63,039 bases of DNA from an uncultured Muribaculaceae bacterium (GTDB lineage Bacteria > Bacillota_I > Bacilli_A > RF39 > UBA660): contig CAZJSD010000002.1 of the NCBI GenBank assembly GCA_964548815.1, forward strand, positions 1 to 63,039. Reading direction: 5' to 3'. The notes below the pieces were generated by a model. That model did no database searches and was not told where the DNA came from. It was given only the letters and a program-made list of their open reading frames with translations. The translations under genes and the position numbers were made by a program. Shown piece after piece: positions 1-31,053 of this stretch (its first letter is position 1; every line of letters starts with the position of its first letter).

Positions 1-13
1 AATTTTGACATAT

Positions 14-46
14 AAAAACCTCGTTTCCTATGTCCAAGAAACGGGG
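14..46 (-). terminator. Rho-independent terminator downstream of small peptide ORF copy 1
   Basis: Minus-strand RNA reads CCCCGUUUC-(10-nt loop)-GAAACGAGG followed by UUUUUAU. The stem is 9 bp with one C:A mismatch and lies 17 nt after the ORF stop. Confidence 0.6.
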
Positions 47-62
47 TTCATATCATTAGGTG

Positions 63-155
63 TCATTTTTTTATTTCAATTACTAACAAGATTAATAATA
101 GAATAATAAGGGTGAGATATCTAAAAATGGAAATTATAAAGTATCTCTTTTTCAT
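63..155 (-). CDS. 30-aa hydrophobic peptide MKKRYFIISIFRYLTLIILLLILLVIEIKK (candidate type I toxin-like membrane peptide), copy 1
   Basis: ATG at 155 with GGAGG 5 nt upstream; TGA stop at 63..65. One predicted TM helix flanked by KKR and KK. Missed by the ORF track because of its size. Confidence 0.6.
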   Translation of the reverse strand: MKKRYFIISIFRYLTLIILLLILLVIEIKK

Positions 156-159
156 TTTG

Positions 160-183
160 ACCTCCTTTCTTTTGAAAAAAGGT
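160..183 (-). promoter_or_regulatory. SD-sequestering hairpin in the leader of peptide ORF copy 1
   Basis: Minus-strand RNA ACCUUUUUUC-AAAA-GAAAGGAGGU forms a 10-bp stem (8 Watson-Crick plus 2 G:U) that buries the GGAGG. An upstream GGAGGUA can pair with the same UACCUUU segment instead. Confidence 0.5.
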
Positions 184-277
184 AGACACCAGTTACTTTA
201 CCTCCAATAATAATATTAGACGTAGATTATAAAAAGTCCCCTATAATTAAAAAAATATTTTTAAAATATTACAAATA

Positions 278-286
278 TGTTATAAT
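278..286 (+). promoter_or_regulatory. Extended -10 promoter-like element (TGtTATAAT) on the plus strand, pointing antisense into peptide module copy 2
   Basis: TG at 278..279 and TATAAT at 281..286. There is no good -35. No plus-strand ORF lies downstream. Confidence 0.3.
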
Positions 287-354
287 TTACTTAGGGAAGC
301 ATTTCACTAATGCCTACCTTTTGTTGGTTATTGGCATTCAGATTAATCTGGGTG

Positions 355-447
355 TCATTTTTTTATTACAATTACTAATATTATTAATAATAGAATAATA
401 AGAGAGATATATCTTAGTATGGATAGAATATAATATCTCTTTTTCAT
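355..447 (-). CDS. 30-aa hydrophobic peptide MKKRYYILSILRYISLIILLLIILVIVIKK, copy 2
   Basis: Same architecture as copy 1 (ATG 447, GGAGG 5 nt upstream, TGA 355..357). It differs from copy 1 at 7 of 30 residues, six of them conservative. Confidence 0.6.
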   Translation of the reverse strand: MKKRYYILSILRYISLIILLLIILVIVIKK

Positions 448-451
448 TTTG

Positions 452-475
452 ACCTCCTTTCTTTTGAAAAAAGGT
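452..475 (-). promoter_or_regulatory. SD-sequestering hairpin in the leader of peptide ORF copy 2
   Basis: Sequence identical to 160..183. Confidence 0.5.
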
Positions 476-540
476 AGACACCAGTTACTTTACCTCCAAT
501 AATAATATTAGCCGTAAGTTATAGAAATTCCTCTATAAAA

Positions 541-570
541 ACCAAAAAAGTCCAATTATTTGGACTTTTT
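541..570 (-). terminator. Rho-independent terminator after parC (hairpin is symmetric enough to work on both strands)
   Basis: Stem AAAAGUCCAA / UUGGACUUUU with a 4-nt loop, directly after the parC stop and followed by U-rich sequence. A T-run is also present on the plus strand. Confidence 0.7.
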
Positions 571-571
571 C

Positions 572-3112
572 TTATTCTATTTTAAAATCATCTAGAAAAT
601 CATCTATTGTTAGTATTTCTTCATCTATTTCTTTTAAACTAACTTCTTTTTTTACTTCTTCTTTTACTTCTACTTCTTTAACATCATCTTTATTTTCTAG
701 TTCTTTAACACTAAACATACTAACTATTCTAACCTTTGAAATAGTACTTCCTGTCGCATATCTATCTGCGATTGTTATTTCAGAGTTTTTTAAGATAGTT
801 ATACCTTTAATATTTAGCATACCTATCATATCTTTAGTATTTGTTATCATTGCACTTATTACTTTATGTGGATTTGTCTTAATAACTCTTATTAATAATA
901 ATCCTTTTCTTGCTCTTGATGATTTTTCCATCTCAGTAAGTTTTACTCTTTTAGCGGTACCTTTATCTGTTACTACAGTTATGTATTCTGATTCTTTATT
1001 AAATACTTCCGCTGAAACAACATAATCGTTATCAAGCTTAATAGCTTTTACACCTGCTGCCCTTACTCCAACAACTGGTATTTCAGATGCGTTATACCAT
1101 AAACCATAACCATTATTAGTTGCGATAAATACTTCTGTATATGGACTAGATGTAACACTAATTACTTCATCATCATATTTTAGTTTCATACATGCGATAG
1201 GTTTATTATATCTTTGTACCTTGAAATCAGAAAGATTACTACGTTTTACCATACCATTTTTACTAAATATAGTTATTACTTCCTTGTGGTCAAAATCATA
1301 TACTGGCATAGAATATACTACTTTTTCATCATCTTTAATAGTAATAACATTACTAATATGCTTACCCATATCTTTCCATTTCATATCAGGTAATTCATGA
1401 ACAGGTATATATAAATAATTACCTATATTAGTAAATACTAATAAAGTATCAAGAGTATTCATTTCATATAGACCAATTATATAATCATTCTCTTTTAAAG
1501 TAATATCTTCATCATTTGATGAATTATAGCTTCTCTTAGATACTCTCTTTACATATCCTTCTTTAGTAACCGCTACTACAACATCTTCTTTAGGAATTAA
1601 TGCTTCTTGATCTATCTTAATTTCTTCTACTTCATCAATTATTTCAGTACGTCTATCTTCACCATACTCTTTCTTAATATCTAGAAGTTCTTTCTTAATT
1701 TGTTTCATTAATTTCTTTTCATCAGATAGAAGTGCTTCTAAACCTTCAATCACTTTAGTAAGGTTAGCAAGTTCTTCTTCTAAAGATACTATATCTGTAT
1801 TAGTTAATCTATATAATTGTAACTTAACAATAGCCGTTGCTTGATCTATAGTAAATCCATATTCTTTAGCTAGATTTTCTATAGCATCTTGTTTATTTTT
1901 ACTTGCTCTAATAGTTCTAATAACATCATCTAGAATTGATATAGCTTTTATTAAACCTTCAACTATATGAAATCTTTCTTTAGCGTGTGCTAAATCAAAT
2001 CTACTTCTTCTAGTTATAACTTCTTTTTGATGATTTATATATGCATCTAATATATCTATAATACCTACTTCTTTAGGTCTTCTATCTACTATCGCAATCA
2101 TATTATAGTTATATGTAACTTGCATATCAGTATTCTTTAATAAATAATTTAATATTAATTCAGTATTAGCGTCCTTTTTAAGATCAATAGTAATTATTAA
2201 TTCTCCTCTAGATGTTCCATCTACTACTTCATTAATACCATCAATCTTTTTCTCTATTCTAATATCATTCATCTTTTTAACTAAAGCTGCCTTATTAACT
2301 TCATAAGGTATTTCAGTTATTATGATTTGATTCTTACCTTTTTCAGTATTAAAATGATATTTTGATTTTACTACTACTTTTCCTTTACCAGTTTCCATTG
2401 CTTTTCTAATTTCATCTTTTCCACAAGCGATTCCTCCAGTAGGAAAATCTGGTCCTTGTACTATTTCTAATATATCATCTAGTGTGCAACTTGGTTTTTC
2501 TATTCTTAATACTGTTGCATCAATTATCTCACTTAGATTATGTGGTGGGATGTCTGTTGCGTAACCAGCAGAAATTCCTGTCGCACCATTAACAAGTAGA
2601 TTTGGAAATTTACAAGGTAATACTGTTGGTTCTAATTCTGTATCATCATAGTTTGGTGCCATTTCTACAGTATCTTTTTCTATATCTTTAAGTATTTCAC
2701 CTGCAATCTTAGAAAGTCTAACTTCTGTATAACGCATTGCAGCAGCTGAATCTCCATCCATAGATCCATTGTTACCATGCATATCTACATATGGAGTTAG
2801 CATTTTCCAGTCTTGGCTCATTCTTACCATCGCATCATATATTGATGAATCACCATGTGGATGGTATTTACCCATGATATCTCCAACTGCTCTTGCTGAC
2901 TTTCTATATTTATTATCATAGGTATTTTTACCTTTATACATTCCGTATAAAATTCTTCTTTGAACTGGCTTTAAACCATCTCTTACATCTGGTATAGCTC
3001 TATCTTGAATAATCTCTTTAGCATATCTACCAAATCTATCCCCCATAATTTCTTCTAGGGCATAATCATTAATTTTTTGTAATATTTCTTCAGTTTCTTT
3101 TTTTCTTGCCAT
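572..3112 (-). CDS. parC: DNA topoisomerase IV subunit A (type IIA topoisomerase A subunit)
   Basis: 846 aa with RAIPDVRDGLKPVQRRILY and HPHGDSSIYDAMVRMSQDW motifs. KPVQRR and the N-terminal DRFGRYAKEIIQ block are typical of Gram-positive ParC/GrlA rather than GyrA. It lies directly downstream of the B subunit. Confidence 0.85.
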   Translation of the reverse strand: MARKKETEEILQKINDYALEEIMGDRFGRYAKEIIQDRAIPDVRDGLKPVQRRILYGMYKGKNTYDNKYRKSARAVGDIMGKYHPHGDSSIYDAMVRMSQDWKMLTPYVDMHGNNGSMDGDSAAAMRYTEVRLSKIAGEILKDIEKDTVEMAPNYDDTELEPTVLPCKFPNLLVNGATGISAGYATDIPPHNLSEIIDATVLRIEKPSCTLDDILEIVQGPDFPTGGIACGKDEIRKAMETGKGKVVVKSKYHFNTEKGKNQIIITEIPYEVNKAALVKKMNDIRIEKKIDGINEVVDGTSRGELIITIDLKKDANTELILNYLLKNTDMQVTYNYNMIAIVDRRPKEVGIIDILDAYINHQKEVITRRSRFDLAHAKERFHIVEGLIKAISILDDVIRTIRASKNKQDAIENLAKEYGFTIDQATAIVKLQLYRLTNTDIVSLEEELANLTKVIEGLEALLSDEKKLMKQIKKELLDIKKEYGEDRRTEIIDEVEEIKIDQEALIPKEDVVVAVTKEGYVKRVSKRSYNSSNDEDITLKENDYIIGLYEMNTLDTLLVFTNIGNYLYIPVHELPDMKWKDMGKHISNVITIKDDEKVVYSMPVYDFDHKEVITIFSKNGMVKRSNLSDFKVQRYNKPIACMKLKYDDEVISVTSSPYTEVFIATNNGYGLWYNASEIPVVGVRAAGVKAIKLDNDYVVSAEVFNKESEYITVVTDKGTAKRVKLTEMEKSSRARKGLLLIRVIKTNPHKVISAMITNTKDMIGMLNIKGITILKNSEITIADRYATGSTISKVRIVSMFSVKELENKDDVKEVEVKEEVKKEVSLKEIDEEILTIDDFLDDFKIE

Positions 3113-28268: not shown

Positions 28269-30683
28269 TTATTTTATTACGAAACTAACTAATTTTTTAG
28301 GAACAACTATTTCTTTTATTATTTCGTGTCCTTCTAAATAATTCTTAACATTATCTATTTCTTTAGCTTTTTCTTTCATTTCTTCTTCTGTAACAGAATC
28401 ATCTACTACTATTTTTCCTCTTACTTTTCCATTTACTTGAACAACCATTTCAAATGTATCTTCCACTAATTTAGATTCATCACATTTTGGCCATTCTTCA
28501 TAAGAAATAGTATTATCATGTCCTAATTTATTCCATATTTCTTCCGTTACAAATGGTGCGATTGGATTTAATAACTTTAAAAATCCTTCTGCGTATTCTT
28601 TAGGGAATACTTCTTCTTTTTGAACTGCATTTAAGAAAATCATTAACTGAGATATAGCTGTATTAAATGATAATTTTTCATAATCTTCAGTTACTTTCTT
28701 AATAGTTTGATTATAGATTTTTTCTAAGTTTTTATTTTCTTTATCTTGAATCTTAGATTCTTCAATAAACATTCTATATACTTTATCTATAAATTTCTTT
28801 GCACCATTTACGCCTTCTTCGCTCCAAGGTTTTTCAGCTTCTAATGGTCCCATAAACATTTCATATAATCTTAAAGTATCTGCACCATATGTATTTGCGA
28901 CATCCATTGGATCTACTGCATATTCTGGATATCTTTTTCCCATCTTTAATCCATTTGAACCAAGAATCATTCCTTGGTGAACTAATTTAGTAAATGGTTC
29001 TTGAACACCCACTAATTTTTTATCATATAAATATTCATTCCACATTCTTGCATATAACAAATGTCCAACTGCATGTTCTGGACCACCAACATATAAATCT
29101 ACTGGCATCCAATGATCTATTAATTCTTTTCTAGCAAATTCATTATCATTCTTTGGATCAATATATCTTAAGAAATACCAAGAAGAAGCTGCTGAACCAG
29201 GCATTGTAGAAGTTTCTCTAACTCCTTTTTTACCATTAATAGTTACATTCTTCCATTCAGTCGCACTCTCAAGTGGTGCTTTTCCATTTCTTCCTTTATA
29301 ATCAGAAAGTTCTGGTAAAACTAATGGTAACTCGCTGTCATCTAAAGCCTCTTGAGTACCATCTTCAAAATTAACTATAGGAATTGGTTCACCCCAATAT
29401 CTTTGTCTAGCAAATATCCATTCTCTTATTCTATAATTTGTTTGTTCTCTTCCTTTACCCATCTTAACTAGTTTTTCAGTAATTGCTTTTTTAGCTTCTT
29501 CAACAGTTAAACCAGTAAATTCTTCACTATTAATTAATTTACATCCTTTTCCTAAGTAATCTTGTTTTTCAAAAGCGCAAGTATCAGTTTCTCTTCCATC
29601 AATTACTTGAATCATTGGAATATCATATTTAACTGCATATTCATAATCTCTTTGATCATGAGATGGTACTGCCATAACTGCTCCTGTACCATAACTAGCT
29701 AAAACAAAGTCTCCTAAATAAATAGGTACTTCTTTATTATTAACAGGATTAATTGCCATTACTCCTTCTAATTTAACACCTGATTTATCTTTATTCATTT
29801 CAGTTCTATCAAAATCAGACTTTTTAGCTGTTTCTTCTCTATATTTTTCTACTTCATCAAAATTAGTTATTCTTGTCTTTAATTCATCAACTAATTTACT
29901 TTCAGGCGCAAGTACCATAAATGTAATACCATATATAGTTTCAATACATGTAGTATAAATAGAAAATTTCCCTCCGCCTACTATATCAAAATCTACTTCT
30001 ACACCAGTACTTTTTCCTATCCAGTTTCTTTGCATCTCTTTAGTTGATTCTGGCCAGTCTAATTCATCTAATCCAGATAGTAATTTTTCAGCATATTTAG
30101 GCATATCAATAACCCATTGTTTCATATTTTTTCTAACAACAGGATATCCTCCTCTTTCACTTTTACCATCAATTACTTCATCGTTAGCAAGTACTGTTCC
30201 TAATTCTTCACACCAGTTAACAGGCATATCTATTTGTTTCGCAAGTCCATCTTCATACAATCTTTTAAAAATCCATTGAGTCCATTTATAATAAGATGGT
30301 TCATGAGAAGATATACATCTATCCCAATCAAATGATAAACCAATTGATTTTAATTGTTTAGTAAAATACTCTATATTCTTTTGTGTAAAGCCATCAGGAT
30401 GTTTACCAGTCTTAATCGCAAATTGTTCAGCTGGTAATCCAAATGAATCATATCCAATTGGATGAAGAACATTATATCCTTGCATTCTTTTCATTCTTGA
30501 CACAATATCTGTTGCGGTATAACCTTCAACATGCCCTGCATGTAAACCTACTCCTGATGGATAAGGAAACATGTCTAAAGCATAATACTTAGGCTTACTA
30601 AAGTCTTCTACATCCGTCTTAAATGTTTTATTTTTATCCCAATATTCTATCCATTTCTTTTCTACTTCTTTAAAATTATACAT
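28269..30683 (-). CDS. leuS: Leucine--tRNA ligase
   Basis: About 804 aa with a HIGH-region variant (GLHAGHVEGY), KMGKR (KMSKS-type) motif and typical LeuS N-terminus YNFKEVEKKW. The start is placed at ATG 30683 (AGGAAG SD); the ORF track begins at a GTG at 30689. Confidence 0.9.
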   Translation of the reverse strand: MYNFKEVEKKWIEYWDKNKTFKTDVEDFSKPKYYALDMFPYPSGVGLHAGHVEGYTATDIVSRMKRMQGYNVLHPIGYDSFGLPAEQFAIKTGKHPDGFTQKNIEYFTKQLKSIGLSFDWDRCISSHEPSYYKWTQWIFKRLYEDGLAKQIDMPVNWCEELGTVLANDEVIDGKSERGGYPVVRKNMKQWVIDMPKYAEKLLSGLDELDWPESTKEMQRNWIGKSTGVEVDFDIVGGGKFSIYTTCIETIYGITFMVLAPESKLVDELKTRITNFDEVEKYREETAKKSDFDRTEMNKDKSGVKLEGVMAINPVNNKEVPIYLGDFVLASYGTGAVMAVPSHDQRDYEYAVKYDIPMIQVIDGRETDTCAFEKQDYLGKGCKLINSEEFTGLTVEEAKKAITEKLVKMGKGREQTNYRIREWIFARQRYWGEPIPIVNFEDGTQEALDDSELPLVLPELSDYKGRNGKAPLESATEWKNVTINGKKGVRETSTMPGSAASSWYFLRYIDPKNDNEFARKELIDHWMPVDLYVGGPEHAVGHLLYARMWNEYLYDKKLVGVQEPFTKLVHQGMILGSNGLKMGKRYPEYAVDPMDVANTYGADTLRLYEMFMGPLEAEKPWSEEGVNGAKKFIDKVYRMFIEESKIQDKENKNLEKIYNQTIKKVTEDYEKLSFNTAISQLMIFLNAVQKEEVFPKEYAEGFLKLLNPIAPFVTEEIWNKLGHDNTISYEEWPKCDESKLVEDTFEMVVQVNGKVRGKIVVDDSVTEEEMKEKAKEIDNVKNYLEGHEIIKEIVVPKKLVSFVIK

Positions 30684-31053
30684 TTTCACTCTTCCTTTCT
30701 AAATGTTTTAAATACTTCGCTATAAAATAATATACAACCCAAATCGTTGGTAGTATTAATATAACTAATACAACTATTTTTAACCATACTTCTTTTATAT
30801 TAAAAACAATCATTACTAATCCTGCAAACATGAGCGCATTAAAGAAATTTAAAATTCTAAGTGTCCTAATCAAACCTATTTTTTCTATATCAATTTTATA
30901 ATATCCTTTTAATACTTCTATTTCAGCGGGATATTTTTTCTTCTTTGATTTTTTTCTTGCCCTAGATTGTGGGAAAACCACAAAAAGCATATAAATCAAA
31001 TAACCCACTATAAAATAAACAATAAAATATAAAAAATATTGCATAAAATTCAT
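30676..31053 (-). CDS. Small integral membrane protein of unknown function, first gene of the T-box/leuS operon
   Basis: 125 aa with 3 predicted TM helices and a K-rich loop (RARKKSKKKK). AGGAG lies 8 nt before the ATG. Its stop overlaps the leuS start by 8 nt. Confidence 0.65.
   Translation of the reverse strand: MNFMQYFLYFIVYFIVGYLIYMLFVVFPQSRARKKSKKKKYPAEIEVLKGYYKIDIEKIGLIRTLRILNFFNALMFAGLVMIVFNIKEVWLKIVVLVILILPTIWVVYYFIAKYLKHLERKSENV

Follow-up and report, generated by a model that had tools for sequence, protein, structure and literature searches.

Two tandem copies of a short module in the window (the whole stretch of DNA analysed, 63,039 nt) belong to an unnamed and widespread family of probable modules of toxin peptide and antisense-RNA antidote. 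As judged by comparison of sequences and predicted structures, the family probably constitutes a new type I toxin-antitoxin family that is built like bsrG/SR4 and belongs to the Gram-positive "3′-overlap" kind. According to this model, each full module would consist of two convergent genes, one for a toxin mRNA and one for a cis-antisense sRNA. The toxin mRNA, of a predicted ~230-260 nt, would encode a 30-aa membrane peptide with a single helix, and its Shine-Dalgarno (SD) sequence would be shut by an upstream anti-SD once transcribed. The first ~30 nt of the mRNA would pair with its own 3′ UTR to form a panhandle bearing the SD hairpin, the ORF and a stop-adjacent hairpin. The sRNA probably has its start past the 3′ arm of the toxin mRNA and stops at an intrinsic terminator, the 3′ arm of which covers the TGA stop codon. 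By pairing perfectly with the toxin 3′ UTR over a long stretch it would bring about cleavage by RNase III and decay, and it may slightly reinforce closure of the SD, because the sRNA and the leader compete for the same 3′ arm. If the labile sRNA were lost, the stable folded mRNA would persist and the peptide would presumably damage the membrane.

The tandem arrangement described in an earlier note on this DNA was reproduced in detail. Positions 59-255 and 351-547 form a direct repeat with an offset of 292 and an identity of 87%, and the 188-nt copies (59-246 and 351-538) differ at exactly 21 positions, 15 of them within the ORF and six located 5′ of the longest identical run, which spans 78 nt (142-219 versus 434-511). 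Both 30-aa minus-strand ORFs were recovered with the peptides given for them (Table 1); these differ at seven residues (F6Y, I8L, F11L, L14I, T15S, L23I and E27V). A 37-nt part of the identical block (475..439 in copy 2) occurs twice in the window, with 0.00 occurrences expected by chance, and neither sequence matching nor a scan with the sRNA profile found a further copy of the module or the sRNA elsewhere in the 63-kb window. The limits of the repeat stand as described, but the modules themselves reach further than had been assumed, and the antitoxin side of copy 2 (278-365, + strand) had been overlooked. On the 3′ side of the ORFs the copies cease to resemble each other at 59/351, because copy 1 is interrupted at position 55/56. 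By its predicted elements, copy 2 is a complete module and copy 1 is a module truncated by an insertion sequence (IS). A GTG ORF that overlaps the leader was rejected as a gene because it differs in length between the copies (22 aa in copy 1, 47 aa in copy 2).

Table 1. Positions of the observed and predicted features of the tandem modules and their borders in the window
Feature	Position	Strand	Details
Left end of IS3-family insertion sequence	1..55	-	terminal TGATATGAA at 55..47; hairpin 43..22 with the transposase ribosome-binding site, GAGG
Start codon (ATG) of OrfA of the IS	11..9	-	ATGTCAAAATT = MSK..
Remnant of the antisense terminator of copy 1 (3′ stem half and T-run)	56..73	+	5′ half displaced by the IS
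Toxin-like ORF of copy 1, MKKRYFIISIFRYLTLIILLLILLVIEIKK	63..155	-	TGA stop 65..63; family profile 50 bits, E 1.8e-14
Putative 5′ UTR of copy 1 toxin mRNA	156..221	-	-10 box TATAAT 231..226; anti-SD/SD hairpin 183..160
Candidate extended -10 element of the antisense sRNA, TGtTATAAT	278..286	+	read directly; weak -35 region at ~258-263
Predicted antitoxin sRNA of copy 2, ~72 nt, AGGGAAGCAUUUCACUAAUGCCUACCUUUUGUUGGUUAUUGGCAUUCAGAUUAAUCUGGGUGUCAUUUUUUU	293..365	+	terminator stem 332-357; U-run 358-364
Putative 3′ UTR of copy 2 toxin mRNA	294..354	-	stop-adjacent hairpin 354..332; 3′ arm AAAAGGUAGGCAUUAGUGAAAUGCUUCCC at 322..294 predicted to pair with the leader; homologous to the 3′ regions of relatives
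Toxin-like ORF of copy 2, MKKRYYILSILRYISLIILLLIILVIVIKK	355..447	-	TGA stop 357..355; family profile 51 bits, E 7e-15
Predicted leader elements of copy 2	helix 5′ arm ~506..472; anti-SD/SD hairpin 475..452	-	from folds
Putative 5′ UTR of copy 2 toxin mRNA	448..513	-	-10 box TATAAC 523..518; -35 box TTGGTT 545..540; -10 box of relatives TATAAT
Terminator of the upstream topoisomerase IV subunit A gene (572..3112)	544..571	-	5′ limit of the tandem pair

The two peptides are members of a conserved family with the consensus MKKRIFIIKVLRYIAIILLLLTLLVIVIKK. The exact 24-nt hairpin of the window gave 0 matches in the genome collection, this variant being rare, and the family was therefore reached via the peptide profile instead; a search of 1.84 billion representative proteins returned 6 matches and a follow-up search returned 32. 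A DNA pattern built on the end of the ORF matched 119 loci from species-representative genomes, among which 81 carry family ORFs, six of these as same-strand tandem pairs. The hosts, every one of them uncultured, are mostly low-GC gut MAGs of Bacilli, "Tenericutes" and Erysipelotrichaceae. The comparative set comprised ~85 modules, with subsets that vary by test (83 ORFs, 86 regions, 80 folds and 51 hairpins), and the p-values given below overstate independence, the compared sequences being phylogenetically related. The earlier note had recognised no named family in peptide or leader, and this was confirmed: the peptides and the family profile had no match in Pfam or NCBIfam (E<=10), PHROGs, PADLOC or PDB sequences, and Rfam, scanned at gathering thresholds over the whole window and permissively (E<=10) over 1-700, gave only chance-level matches in the region. 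Exact look-up found neither peptide on record, a cluster look-up gave no name for any family member, and the peptide strings were absent from the literature searched. Reading of TGA as Trp, a possibility prompted by the many database calls that end in "IKKWHL", was rejected, because the neighbouring genes lack in-frame TGA codons.

The constraint on the peptide that had been suspected from the two copies (dN 0.125 and dS 0.56 between them) extends to the family, in which the median dN/dS is 0.34 (83 distinct ORFs), so that the ORF is, by these estimates, under purifying selection. Its Arg codons alternate between AGA and CGN, its length is constant at 30 codons, and start codon, SD and stop codon are conserved. 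The layout of the peptide is likewise conserved: MKKR..R12 leads into ~17 hydrophobic residues, and KK closes the chain. Hydrophobic, shorter than 60 aa, charged at some positions and predicted to form a transmembrane helix, the peptide agrees with the definition of type I toxins (PMC6563280).

The modules sit in chromosomal intergenic sites between housekeeping genes, in multiple and tandem copies at sites that vary within and between genomes, next to no conserved neighbour gene. BLASTN of positions 1-600 against phages and plasmids gave nothing relevant and a scan of IMG/VR with the peptide profile found no relative; an origin from a prophage or plasmid is therefore not supported. Export of the peptide, for instance as a leaderless bacteriocin or a holin-like lysis peptide, in place of a role as intracellular toxin is very unlikely. 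A small, cationic and hydrophobic peptide encoded by tandem paralogues would suit such a role, but immunity, transporter or lysin genes are not conserved nearby, the phage and viral collections hold no match, and tight silencing by antisense RNA and mRNA structure would be atypical of bacteriocin genes.

Transcription of copy 2 presumably starts ~5-7 nt past the -10 box TATAAC, and the leader of copy 1 is identical to that of copy 2 from position 219 downwards. Both leaders form the hairpin ACCUUUUUUC-AAAA-GAAAGGAGGU, which had been proposed to bury the SD, in their minimum-free-energy folds as well as in their centroid folds. The predicted probability that the SD is paired is 0.994 in the window, and closure is a trait of the whole family, with a value of 0.78 as against 0.44 in 125 control genes with GGAGG from the same loci (p 7e-15). 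RNAalifold found no consensus helix for 57 leaders, because the register and loop length of the anti-SD/SD hairpin shift between sequences; pairing probabilities computed for each sequence were used in its place.

Across the family modules, ~30 nt of the leader are predicted to pair with the 3′ UTR. At least 10 such pairs are present in 78 of 80 full-length minimum-free-energy folds (mean 23), and the duplex of leader and 3′ UTR is more stable in cognate combinations (mean -33.1 kcal/mol) than in non-cognate ones (-26.2 kcal/mol); that of copy 2 has -30.3 kcal/mol. Of the transitions in the two arms, 146 allow a G.U pair on the toxin strand and 52 do not (p 1.6e-11), a bias that indicates selection at the level of RNA and not of DNA. 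It bears on the idea of a non-coding repeat or miniature mobile element with inverted repeats of ~30 nt at its ends and an incidental ORF. At the DNA level, leader and 3′ UTR are indeed imperfect inverted repeats of each other (87% identity over ~29 nt), copies are dispersed over intergenic sites, and contigs often break at them. Such an element would nevertheless hardly account for the strand bias, for a dN/dS of 0.34 with switching between Arg codon families, for an ORF of constant length with conserved start, SD and stop, or for conserved promoters outside the repeats, and the contig break in the window has its own explanation in an IS3-family element (see below); this origin is accordingly the most improbable of those considered here.

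The earlier note had assigned another role to the 5′ part of the leader, in which the anti-SD would alternate between the SD and an upstream decoy GGAGGUA. As a full explanation, a purely cis-acting two-state switch of this kind would dispense with an RNA antitoxin. The leader in the window indeed contains a GGAGGUA that can pair with UACCUUU, within a 78-nt block shared by both copies, but relatives have GGAAC, GGGAA or GAAGC at the homologous position, none of which is SD-like. The "decoy" segment is instead the 5′ arm of the ~30-nt helix with the 3′ UTR of the mRNA, with which it pairs and co-varies, and in the folds of the window leaders it is unpaired with the anti-SD. A conserved antisense gene is predicted as well. 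The decoy is thus not supported, and the switch is a highly improbable account of the module. The SD is predicted to be closed in each modelled state (0.84 in the free mRNA, 0.90 with the 3′ region blocked and 0.88 in the nascent mRNA). The toxin-antitoxin model therefore does not account for translational activation, which counts against it, and the sRNA would have only a small effect on translation.

The type I toxin-antitoxin reading, which the earlier note had put forward from the peptides and leader, gains its missing half from a predicted convergent antisense sRNA gene that is conserved in the family, with a promoter of its own and an intrinsic terminator that overlaps the toxin stop codon; the separately transcribed antisense RNA of the type I definition is here a gene prediction. 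The antisense strand carries a TTGACA/TTGCAA-17-TATTAT promoter including an extended TG (score >=10) in 64 of 86 regions, compared with 15 on the sense strand and 8 in shuffled sequences, and an antisense promoter lies at a fixed distance in 66 of the 86. The stop-adjacent hairpin is more stable on the antisense strand in 41 of 51 distinct sequences (mean -12.8 versus -9.2 kcal/mol, Wilcoxon 6e-8), with 53 G.U pairs on the antisense strand and 8 on the sense strand. In the outer stem of the antisense terminator, 93% of cells are paired and 21 cells are changed on both sides; its covariation score of 0.367 compares with 0.193 in shuffles (0/500 reach 0.367), and all one-sided changes yield G.U on the antisense strand. 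The terminator, like the helix of leader and 3′ UTR, is thus under selection specific to its own strand.

In the window, the family sRNA profile matches + 288-365 (E 1.8e-5), and the stop-adjacent hairpin has -10.6 kcal/mol on the + strand versus -2.7 kcal/mol on the toxin strand. The predicted sRNA has ~72 nt, whereas in most relatives it has ~120 nt. Its complementarity to the 3′ UTR of toxin 2 and the final ~8-11 nt of the toxin ORF is complete, the U-run being the complement of the Lys29 and Lys30 codons, and the duplex of the sRNA with mRNA 2 has a calculated energy of -129 kcal/mol. A consensus scan listed the terminator of this sRNA but missed its promoter, because the match to the -35 box is poor; in the two loci nearest in architecture (L143 and L079), the -10 box likewise lies 76-80 nt from TGACAC. 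Past the 3′ UTR of copy 2 there is no G+C-rich terminator, which makes the 3′ end of this mRNA hard to place and might allow read-through into copy 1. The poor -35 region of the sRNA and the want of a clear terminator for toxin mRNA 2 are observations that speak against the toxin-antitoxin reading.

Copy 1 had been said to end in a good intrinsic terminator. The hairpin and T-run in question (43..22, - strand) belong, however, to the left end of an IS3-family element inserted 7 nt past the stop codon of copy 1. The 28-nt IS hairpin recurs in 11 metagenome contigs, in which the upstream DNA is unrelated and the shared part begins with TGATATGAA or TGAACTGAA and is followed by OrfA. Assignment to the IS3 family is based on the terminal TG..., the helix-turn-helix of OrfA (HTH_Tnp_1, 19.8 bits, a weak match below the cutoff) and the rve/DDE core of OrfB (rve, E 2.5e-24 in L162); the window carries only the first 55 nt of the element, with the start of OrfA. 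The contig terminates inside the IS, and two independent assemblies end at window position 1; the element thus explains the assembly break, and a continuing tandem array at the contig end was rejected. What is left of the antitoxin side of copy 1 is a short remnant: the 3′ end of the copy 2 sRNA (sRNA2) matches 59-75 exactly, and nhmmer gives a residual match at 52-73 (E 0.77). Copy 1 is thus, from the sequence at the junction, a module that has lost its 3′ arm and sRNA gene to the insertion. It is probably silenced by its intact SD hairpin, and possibly also by cross-pairing of sRNA2 with the end of its ORF.

The persistence of copy 1 without its own antitoxin is an observation against the toxin-antitoxin reading, as a potent toxin might not permit it, and it would be readily understood if the peptide were a harmless small membrane protein, for example a complex subunit or a regulator, tuned by a cis-antisense RNA without any toxin-antitoxin logic. 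The location of the modules between housekeeping genes, away from prophages and plasmids, would also suit such a protein. So would the charge layout, since a basic N-terminus and a C-terminus of KK only are unlike the hydrophobic N-terminus and charged C-tail that are usual among Gram-positive type I toxins, which again counts against a toxin. On the other hand, closure of the SD, the 5′-3′ panhandle and an antisense RNA of 70-120 nt are kept in ~85 modules, which seems excessive for a benign peptide, and three layers of silencing are a hallmark of type I toxins. Multiple, tandem and variably sited copies are better suited to selfish modules than to the fixed partner of a complex, and no neighbour gene is conserved. 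We therefore consider the harmless protein unlikely and retain the toxin-antitoxin reading.

Among known systems, the closest in layout is bsrG/SR4. In the bsrG mRNA, nt 1-35 pair with nt 232-262 in a helix, P1, that bears the ORF together with one stem-loop for the SD and one for the stop codon, as established by probing (PMC3834814); folding predicts the same layout in 78 of 80 family members. [quoted passage not shown] As in the Gram-positive layout of the TxpA/BsrG type (PMC8594479), the terminator of the sRNA extends over the stop codon and the 2-3 codons before it. Blocking of the 3′ region slightly raises the predicted pairing of the SD, which is the same direction as the effect of SR4. 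However, no similarity of peptide or RNA to TxpA/BsrG or RatA/SR4 was detected in the Pfam/NCBIfam and Rfam scans (E<=10), and several features set the family apart from bsrG/SR4: its peptide has 30 aa and a basic N-terminus, the 3′ arm of its panhandle is the terminator hairpin itself, whereas the bsrG arm precedes a separate terminator, the U-run of its sRNA terminator is encoded by the last two Lys codons, and the sRNA of the window has just ~72 nt. The B. subtilis systems are, moreover, borne on prophages, and the modules described here are chromosomal and intergenic in uncultured gut Bacilli.

Convergent promoters, a stem-loop that sequesters the SD and intramolecular pairing of the 5′ end of the toxin mRNA are also found in Fst/RNA II (par of pAD1), and a small toxin with one transmembrane helix is common to the Fst/Ldr group (PMC7472228). 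The family consensus, however, lacks Trp, Pro and Gly and ends in KK only, and so departs from the Fst/Ldr signature (PMC7472228). The repeats of the family are inverted, so that leader and sRNA resemble each other and are not complementary, in contrast to the direct repeats DRa/DRb; there are two separate terminators where Fst/Ldr systems have one shared bidirectional terminator; and the interaction is predicted in the 3′ UTR and not, as in Fst/RNA II, at the translation start. In hok/Sok and aapA1/IsoA1, the full-length mRNA is locked by 5′-3′ pairing and the SD is closed co-transcriptionally by local hairpins (PMC6733600; Franch et al. 1997, cited in PMC8594479), and both principles are predicted to recur in the family. 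In these systems, however, the mRNA is processed at its 3′ end and bound by the antisense RNA in its 5′ region, whereas the antisense RNA of the family is encoded opposite the 3′ UTR; the family also has no mok-like overlapping frame, no known 3′ processing site and no match to Pfam HOK_GEF. The type I modules of C. difficile (for example, CD2517.1/RCd8) resemble the family in their convergent overlapping genes, long complementarity, chromosomal location and toxins without homology to other families (PMC6563280), but their toxins, of 34-59 aa, are hydrophobic at the N-terminus and rich in lysine towards the C-terminus and are linked to prophages or CRISPR arrays, whereas the family peptide has the opposite charge layout and no prophage link.

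Leader and sRNA are near-copies that would both bind one 3′ arm, which is half of the toxin's terminator, and it is conceivable, if somewhat doubtful, that the module acts as a device of three-way RNA competition in which the sRNA evicts the leader from the panhandle and tags the mRNA for RNase III. Such competition would couple mRNA stability, integrity of the terminator and closure of the SD in one switch. Matched 5′ and 3′ arms might then define "specificity classes" (for example, in the two copies of L071) that let orthogonal modules coexist in one genome, and the orphan copy 1 may stay silent only through a leader 100% identical to that of copy 2 and pairing of its ORF end with sRNA2.

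Type I systems are known from few lineages, and a 2025 paper names only Proteobacteria, Firmicutes and Tenericutes (PMC12390103). The present family, whose genes are almost never annotated, would be a well-delimited and comparatively supported example from abundant uncultured gut Bacilli with small genomes (in humans, rabbits, ruminants and chickens). Its ~85 natural variants of one RNA design, which combines an SD lock, a 5′-3′ panhandle and an overlapping antisense terminator, could be used for covariance models, for annotation of MAGs and for tests of mRNA silencing and activation. The family also exemplifies how codon choice can be set by the opposite strand, because the two terminal Lys codons and the rare TGA stop appear to be fixed by the terminator of the opposing gene. 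The annotation of the window is corrected to one complete module, one IS-truncated module and one IS3-family end.

The window covers nearly all of the ENA gut-metagenome scaffold XIEF21-1_SAMN15829918 scaffold_532. The tandem pair lies directly 3′ of the terminator of the topoisomerase IV subunit A gene, in DNA of about 25% G+C in which the minus strand carries nearly all genes; with a T-box leader as well, the DNA has the traits of a low-GC Bacillota chromosome. The repeat, mismatch, block and ORF figures of the earlier note were all reproduced: positions 59-255 recur at 351-547 with an offset of 292, 59-246 and 351-538 differ by 21 mismatches, a block of 78 nt is identical (142-219 and 434-511), and each copy carries a 30-aa ORF. 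A 37-nt part of this block occurs twice in the window (0 expected). The two peptides differ at 7 residues, and E27V is the sole non-conservative change, as the count of six conservative changes in seven had implied. The ORFs of copies 1 and 2 show a dN of 0.125 and a dS of 0.56, and the median dN/dS over 83 distinct family ORFs among the matches listed is 0.34; the third codon position is the most variable, and two Arg positions alternate between AGA and CGN codons. Judged by this substitution pattern, the family ORF codes for protein.

A profile of the two window peptides gave 6 matches (E 3e-5 to 3e-4) among 1.84 billion representative proteins, and a second protein search seeded with these 6 gave 32 matches; none of the matches is named or has a Pfam domain, and the family consensus is MKKRIFIIKVLRYIAIILLLLTLLVIVIKK. 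N-terminal extensions of database members, such as 'ECLPLILKEKGGLIKM', are the leader translated by mis-calling, which shows DNA-level conservation of the leader, and the C-termini 'IKKWHL' and 'IKKMTL' or 'IKNDT' represent TGA-CAC-CT read through and one A more or fewer, respectively, in the A-run before TGACAC. Because the mis-called C-termini were informative, a scan of species-representative genomes was designed on the reverse complement of the ORF end (GTGTCAN{1,3}TTTTTATNNCNANNAYYAA), and it found at least 119 loci. Among the matches listed, 81 of 119 loci carry the family ORF and 6 have same-strand tandem pairs; the MAGs that host them bear the labels uncultured Bacilli, Tenericutes, Erysipelotrichaceae, 'Mycoplasma sp. 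CAG:611' and Candidatus Onthousia, from the gut of rabbit, goat, sheep, chicken and human. The contigs L039, L043, L058, L074, L116, L118, L130, L144 and L145 were binned as Muribaculaceae, Phocaeicola vulgatus or Acidaminococcus fermentans; several of them, L058 excepted, bear the family, and they are probably mis-binned low-GC Bacilli contigs. The module sites vary by genome (prfA-prmC, beside smc, beside uvrB, after parC), and no relative was found in phage, plasmid and viral collections. The contigs of L028 (1773 nt) and L029 (3914 nt) terminate in or just past a family module; modules or adjoining elements seem often to break short-read assemblies.

Sequestration of the SD by the leader, as first proposed, is borne out by the folds: the hairpin ACCUUUUUUC-AAAA-GAAAGGAGGU is both the minimum-free-energy (MFE) and the centroid structure of the two window leaders, with an SD pairing probability of 0.994, and across the family this probability is 0.78 versus 0.44 in 125 other GGAGG genes of the same loci (p 7e-15). 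Some 30 nt of leader sequence complement the 3′ UTR, with mean duplex energies of -33.1 kcal/mol for cognate and -26.2 kcal/mol for non-cognate combinations (-30.3 in window copy 2), and in 78 of 80 full-length folds the predicted MFE structure joins these 5′ and 3′ arms into a panhandle that averages 23 pairs and carries the SD hairpin at its top. As DNA, the leader shares 87% identity with the 3′ arm in reverse complement; transitions in the arms favour G.U pairing in the toxin-strand RNA by 146:52 (p 1.6e-11, a value that, like all statistics here, comes from related sequences and overstates their independence), which points to selection on the arms as RNA rather than as a DNA inverted repeat. 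Compensation is illustrated by UGUCUACC with GGUAGACA, by UGUCUGCC with GGCAGACA in L116, by UGUCUACC with GGUAGGCA (U.G) in the window and by the GUCGUCC clade with GGCGAC. RNAalifold found no consensus in the leader alignment because of register shifts. The GGAGGUA that had been taken for a decoy SD in a translational switch is the form that the 5′ arm takes in the window (GGAAC or GGGAA in relatives) and pairs with GCUUCC in the 3′ UTR. In the tandem pair of L071 (1036-1130 and 1582-1676, plus strand), near-identical ORFs are combined with two different leader/3′-arm classes, each internally matched (GGAACAUU..GUCGUCC with GGAGGAGACAUUCAC..UUAAUGUUCC, and GGGAAUAUCAG..GUCUACC with GGGUAGACAUUCAAC..CUGAAUGUUCCC), and the arms look like interchangeable modules of specificity.

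The hairpin next to the stop codon is more stable on the strand opposite the ORF in 41 of 51 distinct sequences among the matches listed (mean -12.8 versus -9.2 kcal/mol, Wilcoxon 6e-8; -10.6 versus -2.7 in window copy 2), and its G.U pairs number 53 on the antisense strand versus 8 on the ORF strand. In the outer ten pairs of the aligned hairpins, 93% of cells pair, 21 cells are changed on both sides, and every change confined to one side yields G.U in the antisense RNA; the covariation score of this stem is 0.367 versus 0.193 in shuffles, none of 500 of which reaches it. Since the antisense strand also has, behind the hairpin, a U-run complementary to the last two Lys codons, we predict that the hairpin is the intrinsic terminator of an antisense transcript, and this double use explains the strong fixation of 'KK-TGA-CAC'. 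Of 86 distinct distal regions among the matches listed, 64 have a strong antisense promoter (score at least 10), against 15 for the sense strand and 8 for shuffles, and in 66 of the 86 the distance between the end of its -10 box and TGACAC is 110-129 nt, so that the predicted sRNA is about 120 nt long. A minority clade to which L143, L079 and the window belong has its -10 box only 71-80 nt away, and for copy 2 the promoter element, terminator and T-run together predict the shorter sRNA2. A profile of the family antisense region matches the window at 288-365 on the plus strand (E 1.8e-5) and nothing else in the 63 kb save a remnant at 52-73.

Features of a complete module (toxin-strand order, from alignments) and of the window
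Feature	Position	Strand	Description
Toxin promoter			sigma-70-type, -10 box TATAAT
Leader			~55-65 nt; starts GGAAC or GGGAA; includes (G)UGUCUACCUCC
SD region			loop, SD GAAAGGAGG, 7-9 nt, ATG
ORF			30 codons, ends AUA-AAA-AAA-UGA
Stop-adjacent hairpin			GACAC...GUGUC, directly 3′ of stop codon
Toxin terminator			AGGUAGACAUUCA...UGAAUGUUUCC, then U-run
Antisense promoter		opposite	TTGACA-17-TATTAT
30-aa ORF, copy 1	63..155	-	
30-aa ORF, copy 2	355..447	-	
Antisense -10 element	278-286	+	TGtTATAAT
Predicted sRNA2	293-365	+	~72 nt
Antisense terminator, copy 2	332-357	+	then T7 at 358-364
IS junction	between 56 and 55	-	...AAAAAAATGACACCTAA joined to TGATATGAA...
T-box leader, RF00230	31091-31271	-	Rfam match of 103 bits (E 1.2e-21); precedes the minus-strand ORFs 30676..31053 and 28269..30689

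TGA is the stop codon of 114 of 123 family ORFs among the matches listed, and neighbouring genes in L003-L030 almost always end in TAA. Gene callers often translate this TGA as Trp ('IKKWHL...'), a reading that was ruled out: the neighbouring genes have no in-frame TGA, so it is a true stop, and it forms the first nucleotides of the antisense gene's terminator arm. The A-run before TGACAC has 6, 7 or 8 A depending on the member (ORF ends of L023-L027, L005 and L055; proteins P0006, P0007 and P0012), 6 A giving IKN and a tail of up to ~16 residues and 8 A giving IKKMT..., and the C-terminus of these variants is, from the sequences, set by homopolymer length; the 6-A form occurs in several independent assemblies, which excludes a read error.

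The modules encode a membrane-type peptide of 30 aa, lock its SD with an anti-SD, form a panhandle in the folds and include a convergent antisense gene that reaches over the end of the ORF; they are probably type I toxin-antitoxin systems, as predicted from sequence. The core of the earlier note's reading stands, with the antitoxin gene now located; the decoy switch and the copy 1 terminator do not. [quoted passage not shown] By analogy, the sRNA would pair with the 3′ UTR and destabilise the toxin mRNA. When the 3′ region was blocked in silico, SD pairing rose slightly, from 0.84 to 0.90 (a rise in 51 of 80 models), and mRNA decay is therefore more likely to be the main effect of the sRNA. 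The SD is closed in every state modelled. The closest architecture is that of bsrG/SR4, which combines a 5′-3′ helix P1 with a short stem holding the SD, a stem-loop at the stop codon and a 3′-overlapping sRNA (PMC3834814). No sequence homology to bsrG/SR4 or any other family was detected in Rfam, Pfam, NCBIfam, PHROG, PADLOC and PDB searches, in line with the earlier note, which recognised no named family, and the peptide strings occur in none of the papers searched. Neither the Fst/Ldr signature nor the direct repeats and bidirectional terminator of par-type loci are present (PMC7472228), and the 5′-3′ locking principle is the sole feature common with hok/Sok and aapA1/IsoA1. The modules are best placed in a family of their own that would work like a bsrG/SR4-type type I toxin-antitoxin system and lies outside every named family.

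The hairpin that had been read as the intrinsic terminator of copy 1 (28 nt) recurs in 11 other metagenome contigs with unrelated DNA upstream, where the common sequence starts TGATATGAA or TGAACTGAA and runs on into OrfA (MSKLSYEDKINLY..., weak HTH_Tnp_1) and OrfB (rve, E 2.5e-24). By this comparison, window 1-55 (minus strand) belongs to an IS3-family element and forms its left end. The window terminates 11 nt into OrfA (ATGTCAAAATT), inside the IS, and two independent assemblies stop exactly at position 1, as a multi-copy IS would explain. The junction lies 7 nt past the copy 1 stop codon, within the 5′ arm of the stop-adjacent hairpin, so copy 1 has lost its antisense terminator, 3′ arm and sRNA gene. 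Between sRNA2 and the copy 1 mRNA there is a perfect duplex of ~16-17 nt at the ORF end (best overall -35.6 kcal/mol), and the duplex with the copy 2 mRNA reaches -129 kcal/mol. Identity over 78 nt beside ORFs with a dS of 0.56 implies either gene conversion or selection matching both leaders to the sole remaining 3′ arm and sRNA. Within the identical block, a promoter-like TAGACA-17-AATAAT (10/12 matches; 183-211 and 475-503, plus strand) points away from the ORF across the toxin promoter and may have arisen incidentally from the conserved GGUAGACA/UGUCUACC element.

The left-end hairpin of the IS (43..22, minus strand) holds the GAGG ribosome-binding site of OrfA and could shield the transposase from read-through translation. 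At L158:1670-1720, a miniature palindromic IS end (TGATATGG-CCCCGTTTCTTGGACATAGGAAACGAGG-TTCATATCA), whose inverted repeats flank the hairpin alone and no transposase, may be a MITE-like derivative. The insertion sites in L153, L154, L155, L156, L158, L159 and the window (56-72) all lie ~10-20 nt 3′ of an A-run (for example GAAAAAAGAC.., AAAAAAAGATAC.., ATAAAAAAATGACAC..), which suggests that the IS prefers terminator-like targets.
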